A stretch of 64,000 bases of DNA, from IMG/VR virus record IMGVR_UViG_3300035180_000246, positions 1 through 64,000 of that record; one strand, written 5' to 3'. Source of the DNA: a virus. Both the position numbers and the translations under genes were made by a program. The first letter of the stretch is position 1, and each line of letters opens with the position of its first letter. The notes under the pieces are model-generated. The model was not told where the DNA came from and ran no database searches. It saw only the letters and a list, made by a program, of their open reading frames with translations. Shown in pieces: positions 31,784 through 43,867 of the stretch.

Positions 31784-32110
31784 TTAAGATTTCTTAGCCA
31801 TTAGCTCCTTAATGCTAGGCTTAGAATTAATACGAGCTTGTTGCTCCTCTTTAGAGATTAACTCTTTAACAGTATCAAGGGTGCAGTTCTTTAGAAACCA
31901 CAACACTTCTTCTTCACTTTCAGCAGTGAAGTCACTGTTTTTGTTAAACTGTTCAAGATCAACACGCAATAACACGCCCATTACTGGACGGATAGACCCG
32001 TCTTCATGCGCTGTCGCCAGCGAAAAGGTCTTGAACTCAGACTTGGCATTGCTAACAGCTTGTAAGCCAGTAGTTGAAGCAGAAACAGAAGCTAAATTGA
32101 TTGTACGCAT
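31784..32110 (-). CDS. Early protein (positional candidate for an N4 gp2-like factor)
   Basis: RBS AAGGA; follows repeated promoter-like motif; function inferred from position only. Confidence 0.65.
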   Translation of the reverse strand: MRTINLASVSASTTGLQAVSNAKSEFKTFSLATAHEDGSIRPVMGVLLRVDLEQFNKNSDFTAESEEEVLWFLKNCTLDTVKELISKEEQQARINSKPSIKELMAKKS

Positions 32111-32168
32111 GATGAAGTCCTTTGAGCATATTGCTCATTAATTAAGATTGAAACAAATAAAACAAATA

Positions 32169-32202
32169 GATACAGAGAATCTGCATCAAAAAAGAAAGAG
32201 CA
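32169..32202 (-). promoter_or_regulatory. Candidate phage early promoter, copy 3
   Basis: TGCTCTTTCTTTTTT then hairpin GATGCAGA-TTC-TCTGTATC. Confidence 0.5.
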
Positions 32203-32261
32203 ACAGTTCAATACACACTGCTCTTGAGATATAACACAGTAAAGTGTGTAATTAGATGAGT

Positions 32262-32288
32262 AAAAAAGTAACTCCCCAAAGGGAGTTA
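32262..32288 (-). terminator. Rho-independent terminator
   Basis: TAACTCCC-TTTG-GGGAGTTA followed by CT6. Confidence 0.78.
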
Positions 32289-32303
32289 GCTTGGGAAAGG
32301 GAG

Positions 32304-32693
32304 TTAACAGATTTGCATCTTACTCCCTAATGTATGCATCATTTCGATATACTCTTCGAAGAAGCATCTTGGAATTTGCATATTACATACTACCATCTTG
32401 GTATGTAAAGCAAAGGCTTGATTGAACGCGCTAGAATACCTGTCAAGGTATCCTACAAGCCTTTTAATACGTATTTCTCTATACGGATCATTGAAATTAT
32501 TGACCCATGATAGGTCAAGAATAACTTTATGACTTAACCCTAAACGGGCTAAGGAATGAGGGCAGAACTCTGCCACATGTACTTCTTCAAATGTAGCTAG
32601 TGCATTTGAGTAGTATCCTGCATGATCGCCACAAAGAATATCACTTTTTAGGTGATGAGCTAAAGCCAATGGTACGAACACTTCGTATTTCAT
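32304..32693 (-). CDS. Early hypothetical protein
   Basis: RBS AGGAGG; own terminator. Confidence 0.7.
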   Translation of the reverse strand: MKYEVFVPLALAHHLKSDILCGDHAGYYSNALATFEEVHVAEFCPHSLARLGLSHKVILDLSWVNNFNDPYREIRIKRLVGYLDRYSSAFNQAFALHTKMVVCNMQIPRCFFEEYIEMMHTLGSKMQIC

Positions 32694-32739
32694 ATAACCT
32701 CCTAGGTTATTTTAAGATTTGAGAAAGAATTAGAGAATT

Positions 32740-32779
32740 AATACAGACTTGTTTATCTGCATCCAATAAAGAAAGAGCA
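32740..32779 (-). promoter_or_regulatory. Candidate phage early promoter, copy 2
   Basis: TGCTCTTTCTTTATT then GGATGCAGA...TCTGTATT hairpin. Confidence 0.5.
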
Positions 32780-32921
32780 CTAGTACTATTTACGCTGATC
32801 TATGGGTATAGCTAAGTGTATAAATGATTACCTATAGTTATAGGTAGTATTTAGGATTACTGAAAAGTGAATATGTGCTTTGTCTTAAGGGTGAGTTAAG
32901 GATAATTCTAGGTATAGTTAG

Positions 32922-33076
32922 TAACACTGATTAACAGTAACAATTAATTGTTAACACTTGTAACACTTATAACAGTACTGACAGCAGTAGCAGTAGCCCT
33001 ACTAGCCCTAACAGTAGTAACAGTGATAGTACCCTCTCTCGATGTACTGGATTGTGTGTGTGTGTGTTGTGTGTGT
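32922..33076. repeat. TAACA / CAGTA short-repeat array followed by a (TG)n tract
   Basis: About 8 TAACA units at 32922-33022, several CAGTAG/CAGTAC, TG microsatellite at about 33053-33076. Confidence 0.7.
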
Positions 33077-33086
33077 TTTTGTTTGG

Positions 33087-33117
33087 AAAAAAAAAATACC
33101 CCACCCGAAGGTGAGGA
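33087..33117 (-). terminator. Rho-independent terminator
   Basis: CCTCACC-TTCG-GGTGGGG followed by T10 (UUCG tetraloop). Confidence 0.85.
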
Positions 33118-33123
33118 TTTAGA

Positions 33124-33351
33124 TTAGTCTTGCTTTTTGCTAAGCTCTTTGAGGTATACAACGGTTGCAATAGAGCCTGCGATTAAGGCCCAAAAACCTA
33201 CAATACTTAACTTAGCAGAGCTTACGATATAAGCCCAGATACTAGCTGACTCTAGAACGTCTAGCGTTGGAGCTACTCCGTCAGCTTGGTAAGCTTGAGA
33301 CGCAATGCTAGATGTTTTAACAGACTTGATAGTACGAGTTGTAGTAGCCAT
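33124..33351 (-). CDS. First early gene; membrane protein, paralog family C
   Basis: Paralog of 29433..29690; RBS AAGGA. Confidence 0.7.
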   Translation of the reverse strand: MATTTRTIKSVKTSSIASQAYQADGVAPTLDVLESASIWAYIVSSAKLSIVGFWALIAGSIATVVYLKELSKKQD

Positions 33352-33375
33352 GATGATTGTCCTTAAGATTAATGC

Positions 33376-33400
33376 GGCAAGATTGCCAATAAAGAAAGTA
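33376..33400 (-). promoter_or_regulatory. Candidate phage early promoter, copy 1
   Basis: TACTTTCTTTATT then GGCAA-TC-TTGCC hairpin. Confidence 0.5.
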
Positions 33401-33473
33401 ATGCTTAAGAATTACTCCATAAGTAAGATATGGGGGGGGGTATACCAGGCTAATCACTCTCAGAATGATAGTA

Positions 33474-33553
33474 ATACACTCGTACCAAAATTATAAAAGT
33501 TGTAAAAACCTGTGATACACTCATACCAAAAATAAAAAATTCCAAAAAACCTG
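33474..33553. repeat. Imperfect ~41-bp tandem direct repeat at the early/late divergence (probable genome-end region)
   Basis: ATACACTC(G/A)TACCAAAA...AAAAACCTG occurs twice; G9 tract at 33432-33440. Confidence 0.65.
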
Positions 33554-33559
33554 AAAAAG

Positions 33560-33589
33560 TTGACTATAACCTATCCTTAATGCTATCTT
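33560..33589 (+). promoter_or_regulatory. Putative sigma70 late promoter
   Basis: TTGACT-18 bp-TATCTT with TGn extended -10, upstream of first plus-strand gene. Confidence 0.5.
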
Positions 33590-33616
33590 ATAAACATCAG
33601 GTATAAAGGAACATTT

Positions 33617-34718: not shown

Positions 34719-36305
34719 TTGATGAATAAACCTATAAAGCAATCTGTAGAGCATTGGCTTAATCAAGTTGATTACGGTGATGATATTAACTACGTCCCTA
34801 GTGAGTTCTCACTAGAGTTTGTTAACTTTATTAAGTTGGTTAATGGTACTGAAGGGGAAGAGAACTTAACTCCTATCATCCATTATAAGATGTTGGATCA
34901 GATTGCTGGAGGTAAGTCTAACACACTTAACATGTTGTTTCGTGGTTCAGGTAAGACTACTGTATTTGGTGAGTATATGTTCTTATACCTTGCTACTTAT
35001 GGGGAATTACCTGACTTCGGGAGAATTGATCTAGCTATCTATGTTAGTGATAGTGTAGAGAACGGTGTAAAGAATATGAGGAAGAACTTAGAGTTTAGGT
35101 GGGAGAATAGTGAGTTTTTACAGCAGTATGTCCCTGAAGCTAAGTTTACTGATATTAGATGGGAGTTTATTAATAAAGACGGGAAGAGGCTTATCATCAA
35201 AGGGTATGGTGCATTAACTGGGGTTCGCGGTAGTAAAGAGATGGGTAAGAGACCTAACTTTGCACTACTAGATGACTTGGTTTCCGATGATGGTGCTAGA
35301 AGTCCTACAATTACAGCCAGTATTGAAGATACTGTATACAAGGCTATTGATTATGCATTACATCCCACAAGACGTAAAATTATTTGGAACGGTACTCCGT
35401 TCAACAGCAACGATCCTTTATACAAAGCTGCAGAATCTGGTGCATGGCATGTCAACGTGTTTCCTGTGTGTAACACTTTCCCGTGCAGTCCAGAAGAGTT
35501 TAGAGGAGCGTGGGAAGATCGATTTACATATGAGTATGTTAGAACTCAATATGATAAAGCAGTCCTTGCAGGGAAGGTAGATAGCTTCATGCAAGAGTTA
35601 ATGTTAAGAATTATTAGTGATGATGATAGGTTAGTCTTCGATCATGACTTAGTGTGGTACGATTCTAAGAGAGTTCAGCAGAATAAAGAAAGGTTTAACT
35701 TCTATATTACTACTGACTTTGCTACTAGTGAAGGTAAGGCTAGTGACTTTAGTGTTATAAGCGTATGGGCTTACAATAATAATGGTGACTGGTTACTAGT
35801 AGACGGTATCTGTGCTAGGCAGTTAATGGATAAGAATATTGATGATCTATTTAGATTGGCTCAGATGTATAGACCTCAACAGGTAGGTATTGAGGTATCT
35901 GGTCAGCAGGGAGGTTTTATCTCTTGGATCTATGATCAGATGGCTACTAGAAACATTTACTTTACTTTGGCTAGTGAAAATAATAATGGTAGAGCAGGTA
36001 TTAGACCAGCCACTAATAAGATGGAAAGATTCAACGTAGTACTTCCTTGGTTTAAAACTAAGAAGATTTGGCTACCAGAGGATATGCGTGAGCATCCTTT
36101 AGTGTTAGAATTATTGGAAGAATTGAAATATGCTTCACCTAAAGGGTTTAAGAGTAAACATGATGATGCTATCGATACGGTATCTATGTTAGCTAAACTA
36201 ACTCCTTGGAAGCCTACAGAAGAGACTGTAAATACAAAGACAGGTGATATGTTTGAAGATGAGCCTGAGTTGACTGGTGGAGCTTATAGCTCGTACATTG
36301 TATAA
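34719..36305 (+). CDS. terL: Terminase large subunit (N4 gp68-like)
   Basis: FRGSGKTT, RP..ALLDD, GTPF, ITTDFATS, HDDAIDTVSML. Confidence 0.95.
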   Translation: MMNKPIKQSVEHWLNQVDYGDDINYVPSEFSLEFVNFIKLVNGTEGEENLTPIIHYKMLDQIAGGKSNTLNMLFRGSGKTTVFGEYMFLYLATYGELPDFGRIDLAIYVSDSVENGVKNMRKNLEFRWENSEFLQQYVPEAKFTDIRWEFINKDGKRLIIKGYGALTGVRGSKEMGKRPNFALLDDLVSDDGARSPTITASIEDTVYKAIDYALHPTRRKIIWNGTPFNSNDPLYKAAESGAWHVNVFPVCNTFPCSPEEFRGAWEDRFTYEYVRTQYDKAVLAGKVDSFMQELMLRIISDDDRLVFDHDLVWYDSKRVQQNKERFNFYITTDFATSEGKASDFSVISVWAYNNNGDWLLVDGICARQLMDKNIDDLFRLAQMYRPQQVGIEVSGQQGGFISWIYDQMATRNIYFTLASENNNGRAGIRPATNKMERFNVVLPWFKTKKIWLPEDMREHPLVLELLEELKYASPKGFKSKHDDAIDTVSMLAKLTPWKPTEETVNTKTGDMFEDEPELTGGAYSSYIV

Positions 36306-36323
36306 GTAAGGATTTTATATACT

Positions 36324-36611
36324 ATGAGCAATGTTTATTATGTAAAACTTAATGCACAAAATAGAGTACTGAAGAGTAAAGTATATCCTAATACTACATC
36401 AGATGCTGTTAAGTTCCCTCCTTCAGATATGATTGATATTACAGATCAAGTAAAAGATGGGGTATCACTTTCAAAAGTAGCAGCAAAAGTTGTGAATAAT
36501 GTCAATAAAGATATGTACTTCATCAATGGAGAATTTATCATTATTGATAGATACTCATTCAATGATGCTATAAAGTTAGAAAAATTACTAGAAAGTGGTA
36601 ATGCAAATTAA
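36324..36611 (+). CDS. Small hypothetical protein
   Basis: RBS AAGGA; first gene of insert after TerL. Confidence 0.6.
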   Translation: MSNVYYVKLNAQNRVLKSKVYPNTTSDAVKFPPSDMIDITDQVKDGVSLSKVAAKVVNNVNKDMYFINGEFIIIDRYSFNDAIKLEKLLESGNAN

Positions 36612-36623
36612 GGGTACTGATCC

Positions 36624-37229
36624 ATGTTTAACATTGTAAAAATACCTGCAGGAGATACTGCTGTACTCCAGTCAAGCAGTTATGATTTATATACCTATAC
36701 TGTGTATGTAGGTGAACACGTAGTAGATATCCCTTTAGGCGATTCTTTATGGTTAATTGGTGATACCTGTGCCAGTGTACATAGAGGTGGTACTAAAGTT
36801 AGAAGTGAATCTTTAGCTGTATTAATCAGAGGTTACCAATGTGAAAGTAAAGCATCTAGTTATGAGAGTATGGTAAATTTACCGTATATTAATGGCTGTA
36901 GTTCACAACAAGTGTTCCCTCCTGTAAGACATGGTGATCCTACGCTACAGCTGCTGTATATGCCTAAAGGTACTAAAGAACAAGCTCACCATATCCACTC
37001 AACTGTTAGAGTGGTTAGGGTTATTGGTGGAAGTGGTTACAGTATTCAAGGTATGACAGATGAGTCTAAAGTTCCGTTAAATCCTGGCGATGTGCTAGTG
37101 CTTGATAAGATGACACCACACCACTTTATTACTGAAGATGCTTACTTACTTGTAGCACCTATGCATGTGTATAGCTCTACAGTATTAGAGAATAATCATC
37201 CAATGCGTAATGGTACATTTGAAATTTAG
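36624..37229 (+). CDS. Cupin-domain protein
   Basis: HHIH...V..V..G.G...LNPGDVLVL....PHHF metal-binding cupin motifs. Confidence 0.78.
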   Translation: MFNIVKIPAGDTAVLQSSSYDLYTYTVYVGEHVVDIPLGDSLWLIGDTCASVHRGGTKVRSESLAVLIRGYQCESKASSYESMVNLPYINGCSSQQVFPPVRHGDPTLQLLYMPKGTKEQAHHIHSTVRVVRVIGGSGYSIQGMTDESKVPLNPGDVLVLDKMTPHHFITEDAYLLVAPMHVYSSTVLENNHPMRNGTFEI

Positions 37230-38130
37230 TAGGAGTATTCGTATGTTAGGTTTAGAAAATTCAGCAGATTCTGTAAGATTCTTTCAGTTTTTTGGTGTAA
37301 TACCTTGCGATAGGACAGGTACATTAGAAGGTTTAATCAATACTGTAAATACTGCCCCTACTGCTGAAGATAGAGTTGAGTACGTAAATACCACTTTTCA
37401 AGAATGTATTGATATGCAGATTGAAAAAATTAAAGCACATCCAATTAAAGATGTAGTACTTCTTTGGAGTGGCGGTATAGATTCTACTTTAGTATTCTAT
37501 GCTTTAGTTGCTGCTGGAATTACATTTAGTGTAGGTATGTCTTTATCATCTGTTAAAGAGTATCCTATGCTTGCTGCACAAATACAACAAGATGTATCAA
37601 CAGTAGGTAGTAGAATGTTTCCTACACTTCTAGCCTATGAGTTTATTAGAGAAATGCCTGAAGGATTCTTAGACAATAAGCTAGTAATTACTGGGGAAAT
37701 CGGAGATCAGTTAGTAGGTAGTGTACAAATGTTGAACTACACTGACCAACAAAGGTGTATGCCTTACGATGAAGTATTGAATACTAGTGAGTATGGTTTA
37801 TTTGATAACGTTATAAAAACACTTGTTAATACCGACAGTTTAACGTTAGGTGAATTTCTATGGGGCATGAATTTTGTATTTAAGTATCATGATGTATTAG
37901 ATAGGATTTCTGATAAACCTTTCTTTGGTACTGGTAGCATTGCTTTTAACTTTTTTGACAGCATACCTTTACAAGTATGGAGTATAAATAATTACAAGCA
38001 AAATGCTAATTTTACTAAACAAACTGACTACAAAAAAGTATATAAGCAGTACATTTACGATGCTAATGGTGATGAAGTGTACTTCAAGTATAAACGTAAA
38101 GTAGTGTCTTTACCTCAAATTAATAGATAA
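37210..38130 (+). CDS. Asparagine-synthetase C-terminal-like PP-loop adenylyltransferase (probable start MLGL at 37243)
   Basis: LLWSGGIDST PP-loop and VITGEIGDQL; no N-terminal Ntn glutaminase domain. Confidence 0.75.
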   Translation: MVHLKFSRSIRMLGLENSADSVRFFQFFGVIPCDRTGTLEGLINTVNTAPTAEDRVEYVNTTFQECIDMQIEKIKAHPIKDVVLLWSGGIDSTLVFYALVAAGITFSVGMSLSSVKEYPMLAAQIQQDVSTVGSRMFPTLLAYEFIREMPEGFLDNKLVITGEIGDQLVGSVQMLNYTDQQRCMPYDEVLNTSEYGLFDNVIKTLVNTDSLTLGEFLWGMNFVFKYHDVLDRISDKPFFGTGSIAFNFFDSIPLQVWSINNYKQNANFTKQTDYKKVYKQYIYDANGDEVYFKYKRKVVSLPQINR

Positions 38131-38209: not shown

Positions 38210-38848
38210 ATGTTAGTAAGTACTGTGTTAAATGATGTAGCTTCTGGAGATATTTATAATATAGCTCTAGGAGAGTCATTTAGAAATAATCCTTATAATG
38301 CTGCTAACGCTGATGCTGCCAATACTCTGATTAGCTATCTAAATCTAGCACTTACAGAATTGAGCACTAGGTTTAATATAAAAACAACTGTAGTTACTGT
38401 ACCTACTTATGAAGGTATTCGATTATATACGCTTAGAGATCCTGACTTAATTAGGGTACTTGAAGTGTATGATGATTTTGGAGTGCCTTTAACATTTCCG
38501 AATACAGTTGATGATCTTGATTCTTTTGACATTAAAGAAGTTACATTCAACACTTTTTTAGTAAACAATCCTTTAAATGACCTACACCTTAATTTTGTAT
38601 GTAAGATGCTACTTCCTGAAGTAACAGATATTTCAGAAGATATAGCTATTTCTAGAATGTTTTTAGAACCTGTATGTAACTACATAGCGTATAAAGCTTA
38701 TAGTTCTTTAGGTGGACCTAATAATCAAAAAACAAGTGATAGTTATTTTGCACGTTTTGAGAACAATTGTACAAAATTGTTAGAACGAGGATTTACAAAT
38801 AATCAAGAAAGCTTGTTTAAAAATGTACGTAACAAAGGCTTTGTATAA
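38210..38848 (+). CDS. N4 gp67-like virion / head-tail adaptor protein
   Basis: YLN.ALT.L.TRF, EP..NYIAY..Y, Y...FE..C..L, C-terminal .KGFV. Confidence 0.75.
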   Translation: MLVSTVLNDVASGDIYNIALGESFRNNPYNAANADAANTLISYLNLALTELSTRFNIKTTVVTVPTYEGIRLYTLRDPDLIRVLEVYDDFGVPLTFPNTVDDLDSFDIKEVTFNTFLVNNPLNDLHLNFVCKMLLPEVTDISEDIAISRMFLEPVCNYIAYKAYSSLGGPNNQKTSDSYFARFENNCTKLLERGFTNNQESLFKNVRNKGFV

Positions 38849-39281
38849 CATTATGGCTACAGAAAATAATAACATTTACACAGATGATGGTAGTGTCAGT
38901 ACAAATAATGGTACTATTGATGGGGAAAATGTAGCTTGCGTTTTTACAGAAAAGCCAACATGTATAGATGCTAATAGAAAATCTAGAAGCATATCAACTA
39001 CAAATTTAAGTAATAATAGGTACTCTAACTACAGGCAAGGTGTCTATTATACTGTAACAAAATTTCAAACAAGTGGTACTGATACTCTAGTAGATTACGA
39101 ATATAGTCGCTTATTTGCTAAAATTTTAGATGTGTTTTTTATCCATAAAAACTCAAATGTACTATCAGATGATCAGTTAAAATTATTATCAAAGTTTGCT
39201 GATACTAGTTACAATACTTTTACTATGCCGTTAGATGTTATACGTCTAGATCAATTCTTAGGAGCATTCCGTGAATACTAA
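38823..39281 (+). CDS. Hypothetical (tail-associated) protein
   Basis: In-operon ORF. Confidence 0.55.
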   Translation: MYVTKALYNIMATENNNIYTDDGSVSTNNGTIDGENVACVFTEKPTCIDANRKSRSISTTNLSNNRYSNYRQGVYYTVTKFQTSGTDTLVDYEYSRLFAKILDVFFIHKNSNVLSDDQLKLLSKFADTSYNTFTMPLDVIRLDQFLGAFREY

Positions 39282-40770
39282 TAGCTTTATTACCAATGTA
39301 AATATACTGGTAGATAATTTAGAAGAAATAGCATCTTTTAACTATTTGAGCAGTAACAAAAAAACTCTAGATGACTTTGTAGCAAGTGGTGTTTCAGAGT
39401 ACTTACCTTTAGTTGAAGATCTAGTTAAAGGAACTTATAAAGGCAATAGACAAATACAATTAAACATCTATCGTAACCTTCCTATAAATGTACAAACTGA
39501 CTTAGAAAGCTTTTTTAATCAGTATTTAGTCAACAATATAAATACTGAAATTGACTATAGTCACTATGTACCAGAGCTGACTCAATATAAAGCTGTCAAA
39601 TTTGTGCTACTTGATAACTCAATAGTTACTTATAACTTCGATAGTGTAAGTGCTAATACAAGTTCTATAGCTACAATATTCGACCAAATAGGTCTAGCTT
39701 TGACATCAAATTCCAATGTAATTATTAATACTAGTAAGGCTTTAATACGTAATTACACTTTAGATTTTAGTGCTGTACTCTATGATCATTTAAACCAATT
39801 TAGCAATATACAGCAAATTTTATTGATTACATCTGACAACTCTGTACAAACTTTTGATTGGAGTTCTTCGACTTCTTCTGTAGAATACTTGTCTGGTAAC
39901 CTCGATGAAATCATTAATGTAGTAGTACCTACAATCGTAAATACTAAAAATGAAATTCAAATTATTGCTGATAATGCCACTGCTGCGGTAAATGCTGCTG
40001 ATGCTTCAATTACTCAAAGTACTATTGCGCTAAATGCCTCTACTACTGCACTGAATGCCGCTGATGTCTTAATTAGTGAAAGTACTGCTGCAGTAAACTC
40101 TTCTAATGATTTATTAGCTGCTGCTAACACTTTAATTAATACAAGCACTACTACGCTTGCTTCCTACACTACTGTGTTAAATACCAGTACTACTGCATTA
40201 AGTACTGCTAATAGTGAATTAGCATCATCTACTACTGCAGTAAATACTGCTAATACTTTGATTGTTGAAAGCACTACTGCGGTAAATGCTTCTAACGTTT
40301 TAATCAGTGAGAGTACTGCTGCATTAGACGCTTATACTGCTGCGCTAAATGCTTCTAATACAACAGTAGATGCCTTAAATAGTAATATGGGTAATTTGGT
40401 TAACTATACTGCTACAAGTGTTACAGTGTCGTCTAACAGTTCTCATATAGTGTTAATCACTAATAGTGTTCCTTCTTGGTACATGGTTTACAGTTTGAGT
40501 GCAGTACCATCAGATGTCCAAGCTAACTATACTATAAGCATTTATAATGGTGATGCTTCTCAAAGTTCTGTAGTAAATGATACAAGTAATCTGTCATATC
40601 TATCGTCTAACAATTCAGGAGAATTGCTAGATAATATTCCTTTTGCAGTTATTGGATCTTCTGCCACTAAAAGTATCGTTATCAATAATAGTAGTGGTGT
40701 AAGTAATACTTTTAATATTGTTTTAGCTGCTACTAGATACGATGTACCATCAACGACAGTGGTAATTTAA
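39271..40770 (+). CDS. Tail fibre/appendage protein with heptad-repeat stalk
   Basis: Repeated STTA(L/V)NA and D.LISES heptads at about 39975-40380. Confidence 0.65.
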   Translation: MNTNSFITNVNILVDNLEEIASFNYLSSNKKTLDDFVASGVSEYLPLVEDLVKGTYKGNRQIQLNIYRNLPINVQTDLESFFNQYLVNNINTEIDYSHYVPELTQYKAVKFVLLDNSIVTYNFDSVSANTSSIATIFDQIGLALTSNSNVIINTSKALIRNYTLDFSAVLYDHLNQFSNIQQILLITSDNSVQTFDWSSSTSSVEYLSGNLDEIINVVVPTIVNTKNEIQIIADNATAAVNAADASITQSTIALNASTTALNAADVLISESTAAVNSSNDLLAAANTLINTSTTTLASYTTVLNTSTTALSTANSELASSTTAVNTANTLIVESTTAVNASNVLISESTAALDAYTAALNASNTTVDALNSNMGNLVNYTATSVTVSSNSSHIVLITNSVPSWYMVYSLSAVPSDVQANYTISIYNGDASQSSVVNDTSNLSYLSSNNSGELLDNIPFAVIGSSATKSIVINNSSGVSNTFNIVLAATRYDVPSTTVVI

Positions 40771-40771
40771 T

Positions 40772-43700
40772 ATGAGTAGTTATTTAGATAAGTTATGCGT
40801 TTATAGTGATAAGTATAGAGCTGGACAGGATTTAATTAATTTAAGATTAGCGTATAAAGAGTTAATCGAAATAAGTTTTCCTGCAAACTTTAGCTATCCA
40901 AACACCACTGCCGTAGTTCAATCAGACTGGGTTACGGATGTAGATCAAACTTTGTCTGCTTCTATTCGAGAGAAAAGAACTTTCTGTACTAAAGGTAAAG
41001 CTATTGTAAATTTTACTGGTACTACATGTATTATTAGAGTAGGTATATCTTATGGTTGGGGGGATGCGGATGTCTATATTGATGGTGTAAAACCATCTAC
41101 AATTACTAACGTAGTTAGTCCCTTAGATACTGTATCTTCAAATGAGACTGTCAATGTCAATACTGGATATTACGATTACGTACTAGCAGACAATTTACTA
41201 TCAGGGCAGCATACACTTGAATTGTATGTTAATAACAGTGCAGGTGTTCCTTTCGTATTTACATGTGTAAAATACACGGATAATACTAGCAGTAGTTTAG
41301 TTTTGAACTTACCTTCACCTATGTATGTAAATCCTTATGTAAATTTAGATGCATATGGCAATACTCAACTTGCTACAGAACATGCTAAACAGTTGTATAA
41401 TTTGTGCAATTCTCATAGTAATAACGTAAATATAAAGATACAAAACCTAACTTCAAATAGTATTTATAATACAAACATAACTTTAATTAGTAATCCATCT
41501 ATAGATTATTTAAATTTTGGACTTGATGCCGTTTCTGGAGAAGTATTAAGTGTACAAGCTTACCCTACAAATACTTTAACTTTTGCTTCAGATAGTACTC
41601 TACTAAATGATACTACTATTACAACTGGCATTAGTGTTTTACCTCAGTATGTAACAACATTTAATAACCAATCTATATACCTTCAATTGTCTGCTGAATA
41701 TCCAGATCCTAATGGAAGTATTATACGAACTAATGCTACTATTGTACCTTTGGATTCAAGCCTTGTTACATATACAGGTAGTTGGAGTTATGATAATGAC
41801 TTTAGCGAAAAACGTTATTATGCTGATACCTCTAGTGCTAGATTCTCGTTTTCAGCTAAGGGTACTCTAACTATTAGAGTTCAGAAAGATTGGGGTTGGG
41901 GAAAATTTACTGTATATAAGGATGGTGTTTTATTTTCTAACGCATCAACTTTAACGTGTGGTGCTGATACAGATCCTTCACCATATTTTGAAGATATTGT
42001 TGTAGGAGATTTAGGGTCGAGTTTGTGTACTGTACAGGTAAGAAACGCAGCAAATAATACTGTTGTGTTTACAGGTGTTAAGTACGAATATAACGCTACA
42101 TTTACTAGTGTTATCGAGAATATAACAGTTAATGCAAATTTACTACATGTACCGAACTATACTCCTTACGAGTATTCTCAAGTATTGCCACACATAATCG
42201 ATGGTAAAGTTTCCATTGGTAGTGTTGATATGTCTAGCAAAACTACTGATTTAACTATACCAGCTATTAGTAATTACGAACAACCTTTAAAAACTTCTGT
42301 AGATGTTTACGTAAGATTTCCTTCATATAATATTTGTTATATGGGTGGTTTTGATAAAGAGTTAAGTACCTACGATTTAGTAGTAACAGATCCTTATGCT
42401 ACATCAAACAGTAAAGTTGATGCTTATCATAAAGCTGGCTGTAAGGTTATGTTGTATATATCTTTTGGTGAAGAAGATGCAGTAAATACTAAATTATATG
42501 ATTTTGCAAATACTAGCGTAGAACCTTGGAGTGTTTCTACAGCAGGATCTGATGTAGGTAATTCAGGTCCAGGTGGGTATGCTAGTTACTACTGTAAAGA
42601 TAACGATAATTTCTCAGAAATCAGTGAATGCACGCATGACAACTCTAGATCAGGTACAAAAACTTGCAGTATAAACAGAAGTGAATATTTTTCTGGTTTA
42701 GGCAGATGTTCTAAAATTTGCACCAAAGATTCTGTTAATGGTTACGTTACTTACAGTGCAGGAGGTAATTGTGGTGGAGGGTATAACTCAACCAATTACT
42801 GGAGTAGAGATGCTATGTCAGCATGTAGTAACTCTTCCTGCCCTCAATACATACCTAATAATCATAAATGTCCTGTATACGAAGGTGGTGCAGGTTGGGG
42901 TCAAGATTTTTCAGTTGTAACTGTAAACTTTCCAGATCAAAACGGTATTTGGGGTTCTAGTTTTATTAATGCAGGAAATATCAATTGGCACAATAGAATA
43001 CTAAAATACTATCTACCAATTATATTTGGTCCTAGACAAAGTCCTGTAACTTTTACAGCTACACTACTTTCTGTAGATTCAGGTGGTGGAGCTAATAGTG
43101 GGTTAGGTTTTAGAGTCCCATACATTAGTGAGAGTGCTAGTACTAGCTACCCTGATGGTAGACAGGGATATTTTCCTGTGGATACCGATGAACCCCTAGA
43201 AATTAAGTACGGTAATGTTGTTTTAGTAAAAGATTTAGATTATAGCTACAATACCAAATTAGGTACATTTGTAGTTCAATCTGGTGCCTCTGGTTTAACA
43301 CTAAAGGCAGGTGATCAATTAACTGTAACTTTAACTTATTTTTCTCCAAATGCAGATGGTGTATTTATGGATACTATGGATAGTGTAGATATATATCCTT
43401 CTACAAATTATCAGACTGGTATGGTAGATCTTGTAAGTAAAGTACGTATAAGTTGGTCTAACAAAGAAATTTGTTCTAATAGAGGATTCACCGTTCTAGG
43501 TAGTACTGTTAAAGATATTAATTACGTTATGGCAGAAAGTATTCGTTCTGAGTATAATTGGAGTACAGGTCAGTATTACACAATTACAGATCCTGAAACT
43601 GTTGCCTATAATCAAGGTATAATCGATCAGCTAAGAGCACTAAGACAAAATCATGTATTTGATGTACTATCTTTAAATTATGCAGCTGATGATTCTTCTG

Positions 43701-43867
43701 GTGATACAATAAGAGAATCAAATACATTAGCAGATTATCAAGATGGGTTTTTATCAGCTACTGCTAATATTTTACTAAATAATGTTTTACCTTTTAAACC
43801 AGTCAATTTAGCTAATTTAAGAATAAAAACTAACTTATTTACAAAAGTAGGTGAATATGAGCAGTAA
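40772..43867 (+). CDS. Tail-associated depolymerase: CBM-like repeats plus GH114/PelA-like barrel with Cys-rich insertion
   Basis: YDLVVTD..AG.KV..YISFGEE, DGVFMDT.D, NRGF, VMAES; two GWG...VY.DG beta-sandwich repeats. Confidence 0.65.
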   Translation: MSSYLDKLCVYSDKYRAGQDLINLRLAYKELIEISFPANFSYPNTTAVVQSDWVTDVDQTLSASIREKRTFCTKGKAIVNFTGTTCIIRVGISYGWGDADVYIDGVKPSTITNVVSPLDTVSSNETVNVNTGYYDYVLADNLLSGQHTLELYVNNSAGVPFVFTCVKYTDNTSSSLVLNLPSPMYVNPYVNLDAYGNTQLATEHAKQLYNLCNSHSNNVNIKIQNLTSNSIYNTNITLISNPSIDYLNFGLDAVSGEVLSVQAYPTNTLTFASDSTLLNDTTITTGISVLPQYVTTFNNQSIYLQLSAEYPDPNGSIIRTNATIVPLDSSLVTYTGSWSYDNDFSEKRYYADTSSARFSFSAKGTLTIRVQKDWGWGKFTVYKDGVLFSNASTLTCGADTDPSPYFEDIVVGDLGSSLCTVQVRNAANNTVVFTGVKYEYNATFTSVIENITVNANLLHVPNYTPYEYSQVLPHIIDGKVSIGSVDMSSKTTDLTIPAISNYEQPLKTSVDVYVRFPSYNICYMGGFDKELSTYDLVVTDPYATSNSKVDAYHKAGCKVMLYISFGEEDAVNTKLYDFANTSVEPWSVSTAGSDVGNSGPGGYASYYCKDNDNFSEISECTHDNSRSGTKTCSINRSEYFSGLGRCSKICTKDSVNGYVTYSAGGNCGGGYNSTNYWSRDAMSACSNSSCPQYIPNNHKCPVYEGGAGWGQDFSVVTVNFPDQNGIWGSSFINAGNINWHNRILKYYLPIIFGPRQSPVTFTATLLSVDSGGGANSGLGFRVPYISESASTSYPDGRQGYFPVDTDEPLEIKYGNVVLVKDLDYSYNTKLGTFVVQSGASGLTLKAGDQLTVTLTYFSPNADGVFMDTMDSVDIYPSTNYQTGMVDLVSKVRISWSNKEICSNRGFTVLGSTVKDINYVMAESIRSEYNWSTGQYYTITDPETVAYNQGIIDQLRALRQNHVFDVLSLNYAADDSSGDTIRESNTLADYQDGFLSATANILLNNVLPFKPVNLANLRIKTNLFTKVGEYEQ

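Follow-up and report, generated by a model that had tools for sequence, protein, structure and literature searches.

What do a cupin and a stand-alone PP-loop enzyme do among the late genes of a phage? We analyzed a 64,000-nucleotide stretch of viral DNA (positions 1 to 64,000 of the IMG/VR record IMGVR_UViG_3300035180_000246; hereafter, the window). The record is a 73,858-bp N4-like (Schitoviridae-type) phage that is 100% complete according to CheckV. Between the terminase gene (TerL) and the gene for the head-tail adaptor, the window encodes a 95-amino-acid open reading frame (ORF95), a cupin, and a PP-loop protein that resembles asparagine synthetase B (AsnB). A reading of the sequence alone had proposed that these genes were inserted after the terminase and that they form a late-expressed cassette for tailoring a virion protein, glycan, or nucleotide. 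We found that the cupin and PP-loop genes very probably form a conserved pair, of an AsnB-class adenylating enzyme and a metal cupin, and that ORF95 does not belong to it.

Linkage of the cupin and PP-loop genes

We fetched 80 viral and 80 bacterial loci that encode the PP-loop protein or its relatives, and we called ORFs mechanically. A cupin gene adjoins the PP-loop gene in 70 of these 160 loci: the window itself, 23 other viral loci, and 46 bacterial loci. So, homologs of the two genes do not just occur independently in unrelated contexts. Linked loci come from phages and from no fewer than five bacterial phyla. The two genes are found in either order, and they are sometimes split by unrelated small ORFs. 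In Bacteroidota, the arrangement may be cupin, a 127-amino-acid basic protein, and then the PP-loop protein, or else a 160-amino-acid membrane-anchored protein, the PP-loop protein, and then the cupin. The Verrucomicrobiota have a full-length AsnB ahead of the pair. In full-text searches of the literature, we did not find a published description of the pair.

To see how the linkage is distributed, consider a tree of 187 members of the PP-loop family (built with FastTree, and with several long branches). Members that are linked to a cupin are scattered over the whole tree, with 16 changes between linked and unlinked, as compared to a mean of 54 changes if the labels are shuffled. At least 9 of the 16 changes are forced by well-supported branches. 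This scatter implies that the linkage is old or was formed repeatedly.

We also considered the linkage from the cupin's side, using 62 cupin loci with at least 3 kb of sequence on both flanks. The PP-loop partner is present in 34 of these loci, and another kind of adenylate-forming enzyme is near the cupin in about 20 more, so an enzyme that forms adenylates is found near the cupin in roughly 54 of the 62 loci. In 11 loci, the cupin gene lies directly after a trio of genes that encode ParB_N, PAPS_reduct+DUF3440, and ParB_N proteins (similar to IbrA/IbrB), and 4 of these 11 loci also encode a second PAPS_reduct protein and a GATase-like protein. Another 5 loci encode a full Asn_synthase protein and a double methyltransferase, and 4 loci encode an AMP-binding enzyme of the ANL type.

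Some of these loci have other features of interest. The trio is found at L173:1263-5762, at L177:2318-6600, and at 9 similar loci, and L173 has a TerL of the Terminase_3 family just downstream. ANL enzymes are encoded near the cupin at L260:635-6594, L274:1048-4331, and L299:4243-6588. L260 and L274 also encode a PglD-like hexapeptide transferase, and L260 adds a nonulosonic-acid synthase (NeuB), which places the cupin in a sugar-modification context. Separately, two clusters of neighboring proteins (23 and 71) were candidates for divergent relatives of the PP-loop protein or the cupin, but hhalign ruled this out: they are a sodium:solute symporter (SSF) and a DUF4376 protein.

The PP-loop protein and the cupin

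The PP-loop protein falls in the AsnB class, although it is divergent. Its AlphaFold (AF2) model has a single synthetase-type domain (predicted local distance difference test (pLDDT) 89.7, predicted template modeling score (pTM) 0.89). We aligned this model to about 48,000 representatives of the PDB, and the five best folds were all AsnB-class enzymes: β-lactam synthetase (Z = 12.6), human ASNS (12.3), TsnB9 (11.8), the carbapenam synthetase CarA (10.8), and E. coli AsnB (10.1). Alignments to AsnB-class enzymes span 187–236 residues, and the model aligns to about residues 155–540 of the two-domain AsnB-type enzymes. Other PP-loop folds (GMP synthase, FAD synthase, TilS, LarE, PAPS reductases, and NAD synthetase) had Z of 8.9 or less. 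Foldseek gave the same ranking, with weak E-values of around 1e-3.

Profile-profile alignment leads to the same class. Using hhalign, we compared the family to Asn_synthase-positive proteins from loci L096, L130, L134, L267, and L247, which gave a probability of 95.6% (E = 1.2e-8) and placed both signature motifs in register. SGGIDS aligns with SGGLDS, and TGEIGDQxxGS aligns with tGEgGDPxxGG. (The second signature motif of AsnB is xGEGxDExxGG.) The protein of 295–306 amino acids has no GATase or glutaminase match in Pfam, and the model is one domain. These results bear out the sequence-only reading's description of an adenylating enzyme that resembles the C-terminal domain of AsnB and lacks a glutaminase domain. 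AsnB-class enzymes adenylate a carboxylate, and a nitrogen nucleophile then attacks it.

Sequence models for known families do not capture this protein. No model from Pfam, NCBIfam, PHROG, or PADLOC covers it, and it does not match PF00733 even at E up to 1. It scores 12.5 bits against TIGR01536 (the cut-off is 267 bits), and other members of its family score 16–17 bits against PF00733 (the cut-off is 21 bits). The matches to curated families in Pfam and NCBIfam (NAD synthase, LarE, and AsnB) are below threshold and cover the PP-loop region only, and searching the PDB with a sequence profile gave alignments that were limited to the PP-loop stretch.

The protein belongs to a delimited family that is distinct from canonical AsnB. 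An exhaustive profile search of 1.84 billion cluster representatives found 1,989 relatives with E of 1e-3 or below, including 891 with E of 1e-30 or below, or about 2,000 clusters at 50% identity, and the search does not draw in canonical AsnB. Members of the family are often encoded by uncultured phages, which belong to several morphotypes, and by bacteria from at least five phyla. In the ESM Atlas and BFVD, the protein's neighbors are stand-alone proteins of about 310–400 amino acids, mostly from uncultured Caudovirales, and some are automatically named “asparagine synthase.” Some members are longer (534–654 amino acids), and their extra regions contain no cupin and nothing else that we could recognize. 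With tblastn, neither four members of the family nor the cupin had any hits in 50,697 GenBank phage records. NCBI holds a 197-amino-acid fragment that is 76% identical to the window's protein and is filed under a metagenome-assembled genome of the archaeon Ignisphaera sp.; it is most likely a mis-binned phage contig.

Across 42 homologs of the PP-loop protein, S87-GGIDS-T93, E117, W218, K275, and K297 are invariant. The second motif, TGEIGDQxxGS (G162, E163, G165, D166, Q167, and G170), is nearly invariant, and so is a Lys/Tyr-rich C-terminal segment (K275, K279, K295, and K297).

The other member of the pair is a cupin, as the sequence-only reading had noted, and it is predicted to bind a metal through His ligands. 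Its scores against Cupin_2 (PF07883) are 27.4 and 28.5 bits (the cut-off is 27.2 bits). Across 40 homologs, H123, H125, H166, H181, H192, C92, D105, Q120, and R129 are invariant. R129 occupies the position of the Glu ligand in the canonical cupin motif. Members from phages and bacteria are 46–62% identical to each other. In the AF2 model (pLDDT 85.5), the fold resembles that of a bicupin: the N-terminal barrel is degenerate, and the His site is in the C-terminal barrel. The nearest folds are DUF861/DR1152 (Z = 14.6), (S)-ureidoglycine aminohydrolase (14.4), and YlbA (13.9); gentisate, salicylate, and quercetin dioxygenases are lower (12–13). Among the named clusters of the ESM Atlas, the nearest is also of the DUF861/(S)-ureidoglycine aminohydrolase type (score 0.89). 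At the sequence level, the cupin has no match to these families in Pfam or NCBIfam. Because the margins in Z between the nearest folds are small, no type of reaction can be assigned. We did not find fusion proteins that contain the cupin, which is weak evidence. Both enzymes belong to conserved families with invariant residues of catalytic type, so their presence in the phage is not due to chance.

How does the pair compare to known systems? The PP-loop protein shares its fold class, both signature motifs, and its expected adenylation chemistry with the synthetase domain of AsnB and with β-lactam synthetase, CarA, and TsnB9. In contrast to those enzymes, it has just about 295 amino acids, without a glutaminase domain or a vestige of one; it is below threshold for PF00733 and the NCBIfam model; and its family has its own Lys/Tyr-rich C-terminal segment and a dedicated cupin partner. 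As for the cupin, the DUF861/YlbA/AllE bicupins are its best whole-chain matches (Z = 13.9–14.6 over about 180 residues), with two barrels and one metal site in the models. However, the cupin is only 8–14% identical to them and has its own invariant set (HxH...H along with H181, H192, C92, and R129), and there are no genes of the ureide pathway nearby.

Cupins of secondary metabolism can be fused to, or adjacent to, paralogous ligases that are MetRS-like or of the ATP-grasp or condensation types, and AsnB-like PP-loop ATPases were noted in some of these operons (Biol Direct 2010, PMC2922099). In those systems, as in ours, a metal cupin is strictly linked to an ATP-driven enzyme that activates carboxylates. 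This is a resemblance in logic and does not imply that the cupins are homologous. Also, our adenylating enzyme is from another family, no lysine N6-monooxygenase or other pathway genes accompany the pair, and we found no cupin fusions.

Lasso-peptide cyclases (the C protein) and QueC are PP-loop ATP pyrophosphatases as well, and lasso cyclases are in the AsnB class. The sequence-only reading had listed both as relatives, but neither role is supported. When we clustered the neighboring proteins from the 160 loci, we found no B protease, RRE, or conserved precursor gene beside the pair. The window's PP-loop protein does not match the QueC family (PF06508), and its similarity to QueC is limited to a 31-residue PP-loop stretch (phrog_1550, E = 1.9e-4). 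Also, the fold comparison ranks the AsnB class above other PP-loop enzymes, and the genome lacks TGT/DpdA.

The insertion and its surroundings

The three ORFs lie on the + strand between TerL and the N4 gp67-like adaptor gene, just where the sequence-only reading had placed them (Table 1), and the motifs that it quoted are present: EQAHHIHSTVR and TPHHF in the cupin, and LWSGGIDST and TGEIGDQLVGS in the PP-loop protein.

Table 1. Genes of the inserted block and its boundaries, with coordinates in the window.
Feature	Coordinates	Strand	Description
TerL, N4 gp68-like	34719..36305	+	phrog_38 (E = 5.7e-95); 5' boundary of the insertion
ORF95	36324-36611	+	Lineage-specific small ORF, outside the conserved cassette
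Cupin, 201 amino acids	36624-37229	+	Metal-binding, Cupin_2; bicupin-like
PP-loop protein	37243-38130 (probable start; ORF opens at 37210)	+	AsnB-class synthetase domain only, no glutaminase
Head-tail adaptor, N4 gp67-like	38210..38848	+	SU10_adaptor (7.3e-10), phrog_2125 (1.6e-26); 3' boundary of the insertion

The block of three genes is a 1.9-kb insertion. In cultured Schitoviridae, whose TerL proteins are 61–65% identical to the window's TerL, the terminase and adaptor genes are nearly contiguous: the gap to the adaptor homolog is 44 bp in Pseudoalteromonas phage pYD6-A and 8 bp in Erwinia phage MIF8. We also used TerL to recover 58 related IMG/VR records. Just 2 of the 58 carry the block, and both have 92% identity in TerL. 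None of the other 56 N4-like relatives have a cupin or PP-loop gene in the fetched flanks. In 26 of those relatives, the adaptor is recognizable; the gap between TerL and its start is -7 to +100 bp in 25 cases and 292 bp in the remaining case. These results confirm that the genes were inserted after the terminase. Because the block is present only in the two closest TerL relatives, it appears to be a recent, lineage-specific accessory acquisition.

ORF95 lies outside the conserved module. Its homologs are found only at loci L001 and L002 (82–83% identity), that is, in the two closest relatives, and it does not match any family in Pfam, PHROG, NCBIfam, or PADLOC. Small ORFs are also found ahead of the pair at other loci; they are unrelated to ORF95 and to one another, which rules ORF95 out as a conserved third component. 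The suggestion that ORF95 might be a substrate or a chaperone is not supported.

The PP-loop gene most probably begins at the ATG at 37243, because an AGGAG Shine-Dalgarno sequence lies 8 nucleotides upstream, the closest homologs have 295–296 amino acids, and the corresponding record in the ESM Atlas opens at that methionine. The spacers within the block are just 12–18 bp and contain Shine-Dalgarno-like sequences, and all of the genes are on the same strand. When we scanned the sequence, no site within the block resembled a terminator. The region has no more promoter-like matches than shuffled sequence does, and none inside the block is convincing. Because the genes share a strand, have short spacers, and have no internal terminator, we infer that they are part of the late transcription unit, so the sequence-only reading was probably correct that they are expressed late. 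Four DNA sequencing runs, from microbial-mat and sediment metagenomes, match the sequence; no RNA runs are among those listed.

Other parts of the window merit a brief description. At 39271-40770 on the + strand, a 499-amino-acid ORF contains long quasi-repeats that are rich in Ser, Thr, Ala, and Asn (…STTALNA…NxLIxESTxAxNxSN…). It is followed by a 1031-amino-acid ORF (40772-43867). Neither has matched a family so far, and they are probably tail-fiber or appendage proteins. At about 32000-33600, the GC skew changes sign and the orientation of the genes changes from the - strand to the + strand, and there is a G+C-rich, terminator-like hairpin at 33116-33099 (- strand). The divergent transcription modules of the N4-like genome probably meet here.

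Other phages also have the pair among packaging and structural genes. It lies directly before TerL in some phages, instead of directly after TerL as in the window. T4-like contigs have it between the distal tail fiber and the genes for gp13/14/15 and TerS/TerL, and in several more phages, it follows the tail fibers or a gp38-like adhesin. At one viral locus in the window's PP-loop clade (L005:8954-10143), two genes for 2-oxoglutarate (2OG)-Fe(II) oxygenases lie directly after the pair, and a gp38-like adhesin precedes it.

Parts of the PP-loop family that lack the cupin are associated with transporters instead. In the tree, the sister of the window's clade is a viral clade with a sodium:solute symporter next to its genes, and a marine viral clade (42 rows of the tree, often with tandem paralogs) adjoins the solute-binding protein DctP of TRAP transporters. 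The closest solved relatives of these transporter partners are uninformative as to the substrate: DctP matches generic TRAP binding proteins, and the symporter of a bacterial locus (L146) weakly matches the urea symporter DUR3 at its N-terminus, which is just a lead.

The DctP loci include L022:4227-6541 and the series L026-L052 (marine contigs from IMG/VR). DctP is encoded directly upstream of one or two AsnB-like PP-loop paralogs, and genes similar to DnaB, RecA, and MazG are nearby. In phages, such a coupling of a solute-binding protein to an amide synthetase resembles an auxiliary metabolic unit of a kind that is not yet described. Genes for the symporter (PF00474) adjoin PP-loop genes at L068:6533-10039 and also at L011, L016-L021, L065-L070, L146, and L156. 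In L068, which is T4-like, TerS and TerL flank the transporter along with two PP-loop paralogs.

What the pair might act on

Our favored explanation is that the module acts on a small-molecule carboxylate rather than on a component of the virion, and we give this a probability of roughly one half. We lean towards a small molecule because the bacterial copies lie among ordinary genes, because there is no relationship among the small upstream ORFs, because the sister clades are found by transporters, and because the phage has no TGT/DpdA or PAPS reductase. The neighbors of the bacterial cassettes include response regulators, BipA, AraC regulators, ion channels, and the like. Among 147 flanking proteins from 45 bacterial loci, we found no sign of phages, defense systems, or biosynthetic gene clusters, except for two matches to AbiEii-type AAA_21. 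A search of the 73.9-kb phage genome for TGT/DpdA and PAPS_reduct found nothing, and the same search recovered the cupin, which served as a positive control. Similarly, the genome has no match to PF00109, PF08541, PF00550, or PF00583 (ketosynthase (KS), FabH-type KS, acyl carrier protein (ACP), and GNAT), while the control (PF07883) was matched; nor are there KS, ACP, or GNAT genes beside the pair within the fetched flanks of the 160 loci.

Under this explanation, a lineage-specific, late-transcribed accessory insertion would carry a conserved two-enzyme module, with ORF95 outside of the module. By analogy to its relatives, the stand-alone AsnB-type enzyme would bind ATP at the PP-loop, adenylate the carboxylate of the substrate, and release pyrophosphate. 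A nitrogen nucleophile (either free ammonia or an amine) would then displace AMP to form an amide, again if the chemistry is that of the family. The cupin might act on the same substrate before or after this step, as an oxygenase, an isomerase, or a hydrolase. The substrate would most likely be a small carboxylate of ordinary cells (a metabolite or a precursor), and in the phage, the module might re-route or tailor that metabolite during late infection.

Several observations weigh against a small-molecule substrate. In phages, the pair tends to lie in the module for packaging and structure: of the 52 non-redundant loci that contain it, 23 have TerL within 6 kb, and tail-fiber genes adjoin it in several phages. 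This tendency would also fit a target in the virion or in DNA. The transporters belong to the cupin-less sister clades and not to the cupin-linked clade itself. The nearest folds of the modeled cupin have nearly equal Z, so its fold does not fix the type of reaction. Also, our sets of loci include near-duplicates, and the counts are not fully de-replicated.

Could the pair modify the virion instead? For instance, it might amidate or cross-link an acidic residue or the C-terminus of a tail fiber, with hydroxylation by the cupin, or it might modify another structural protein or a virion glycan. The block does sit within a late structural operon. Elsewhere, the pair follows long tail-fiber genes or a gp38-like adhesin and a DUF4376 gene, or it precedes neck genes; 14 of 52 viral loci have an ORF of at least 700 amino acids within 2.5 kb; and one locus (L005) has 2OG-Fe(II) oxygenases nearby. 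Being next to tail fibers is weak evidence, because the ends of tail-fiber modules are common sites for the insertion of accessory genes. And the 56 other N4-like relatives build virions without the pair, while the 46 bacterial loci have the same pair among ordinary genes and without phage structural genes. Neither ORF95 nor the other small upstream ORFs are conserved. We consider a virion target to be unlikely. Given the bacterial copies and the lack of conservation of ORF95, the enzymology of the proposed tailoring cassette holds up, but virion tailoring with ORF95 as the substrate is weakly supported. Modification of a nucleic acid seems similarly unlikely. In this scenario, a base or nucleotide that bears a carboxylate, in phage DNA or in a tRNA, would be amidated or otherwise modified by the pair at about the time when DNA is packaged. 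Nucleotides or tRNA are the substrates of many PP-loop enzymes, and TerL is much less often within 6 kb of PP-loop genes without the cupin (3 of 42 loci) or of cupins without the PP-loop gene (5 of 24 loci) than of the pair. The 11 loci with the cupin after the ParB_N/PAPS_reduct+DUF3440/ParB_N trio, next to TerL, also fit with this idea. However, the fold and the motifs are of the AsnB type and not of the TilS, QueC, or ThiI types; we detected no nucleic-acid-binding domain; the complete genome lacks TGT/DpdA and PAPS_reduct; and it is solute transporters that accompany the sister clades.

We think it quite improbable that the cupin substitutes for the missing glutaminase by supplying the nitrogen nucleophile, or that it re-works the activated intermediate. 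In one version, a cupin like ureidoglycine aminohydrolase would act on a nitrogen-rich solute to release ammonia or a different nitrogen nucleophile, which it would pass to the AsnB-type synthetase. The predicted similarity of the fold to (S)-ureidoglycine aminohydrolase and the weak match to DUR3 are only leads for this version. If true, the pair would be a new two-component amidotransferase, and phages would be tapping alternative sources of nitrogen. In the other version, the cupin would rearrange the activated intermediate to form an unusual nitrogen-containing bond, by analogy to the hydrazine synthetases that combine a cupin with an adenylating enzyme. A role in conflict, in which a mobile cassette of two or three genes would act in defense or counter-defense or be toxin-like, perhaps by altering a signaling nucleotide or cofactor, is very unlikely. 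It would account for why the bacterial unit is self-contained (2–3 genes) with flanks that differ even between congeneric species, why the third gene varies (the 127-amino-acid basic protein or the 160-amino-acid membrane-anchored protein), and why phages and bacteria share the cassette. But no component matches PADLOC, we found no nuclease, effector, or sensor domain, and the two AbiEii-type matches are the only hint of conflict among the 147 flanking proteins.

Overall, the PP-loop proteins are a well-delimited and uncharacterized family of enzymes which, along with an equally conserved cupin, form a two-enzyme module that can be tested. The cupin partners with four unrelated kinds of adenylate-forming enzymes, which suggests a logic of activating a carboxylate and then performing cupin chemistry. 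For phages, no such logic has been described. If the substrate were identified, thousands of metagenomic genes would gain a function, and the finding might reveal either a new auxiliary metabolic activity (the handling of nitrogen or organic acids) or a new modification chemistry.

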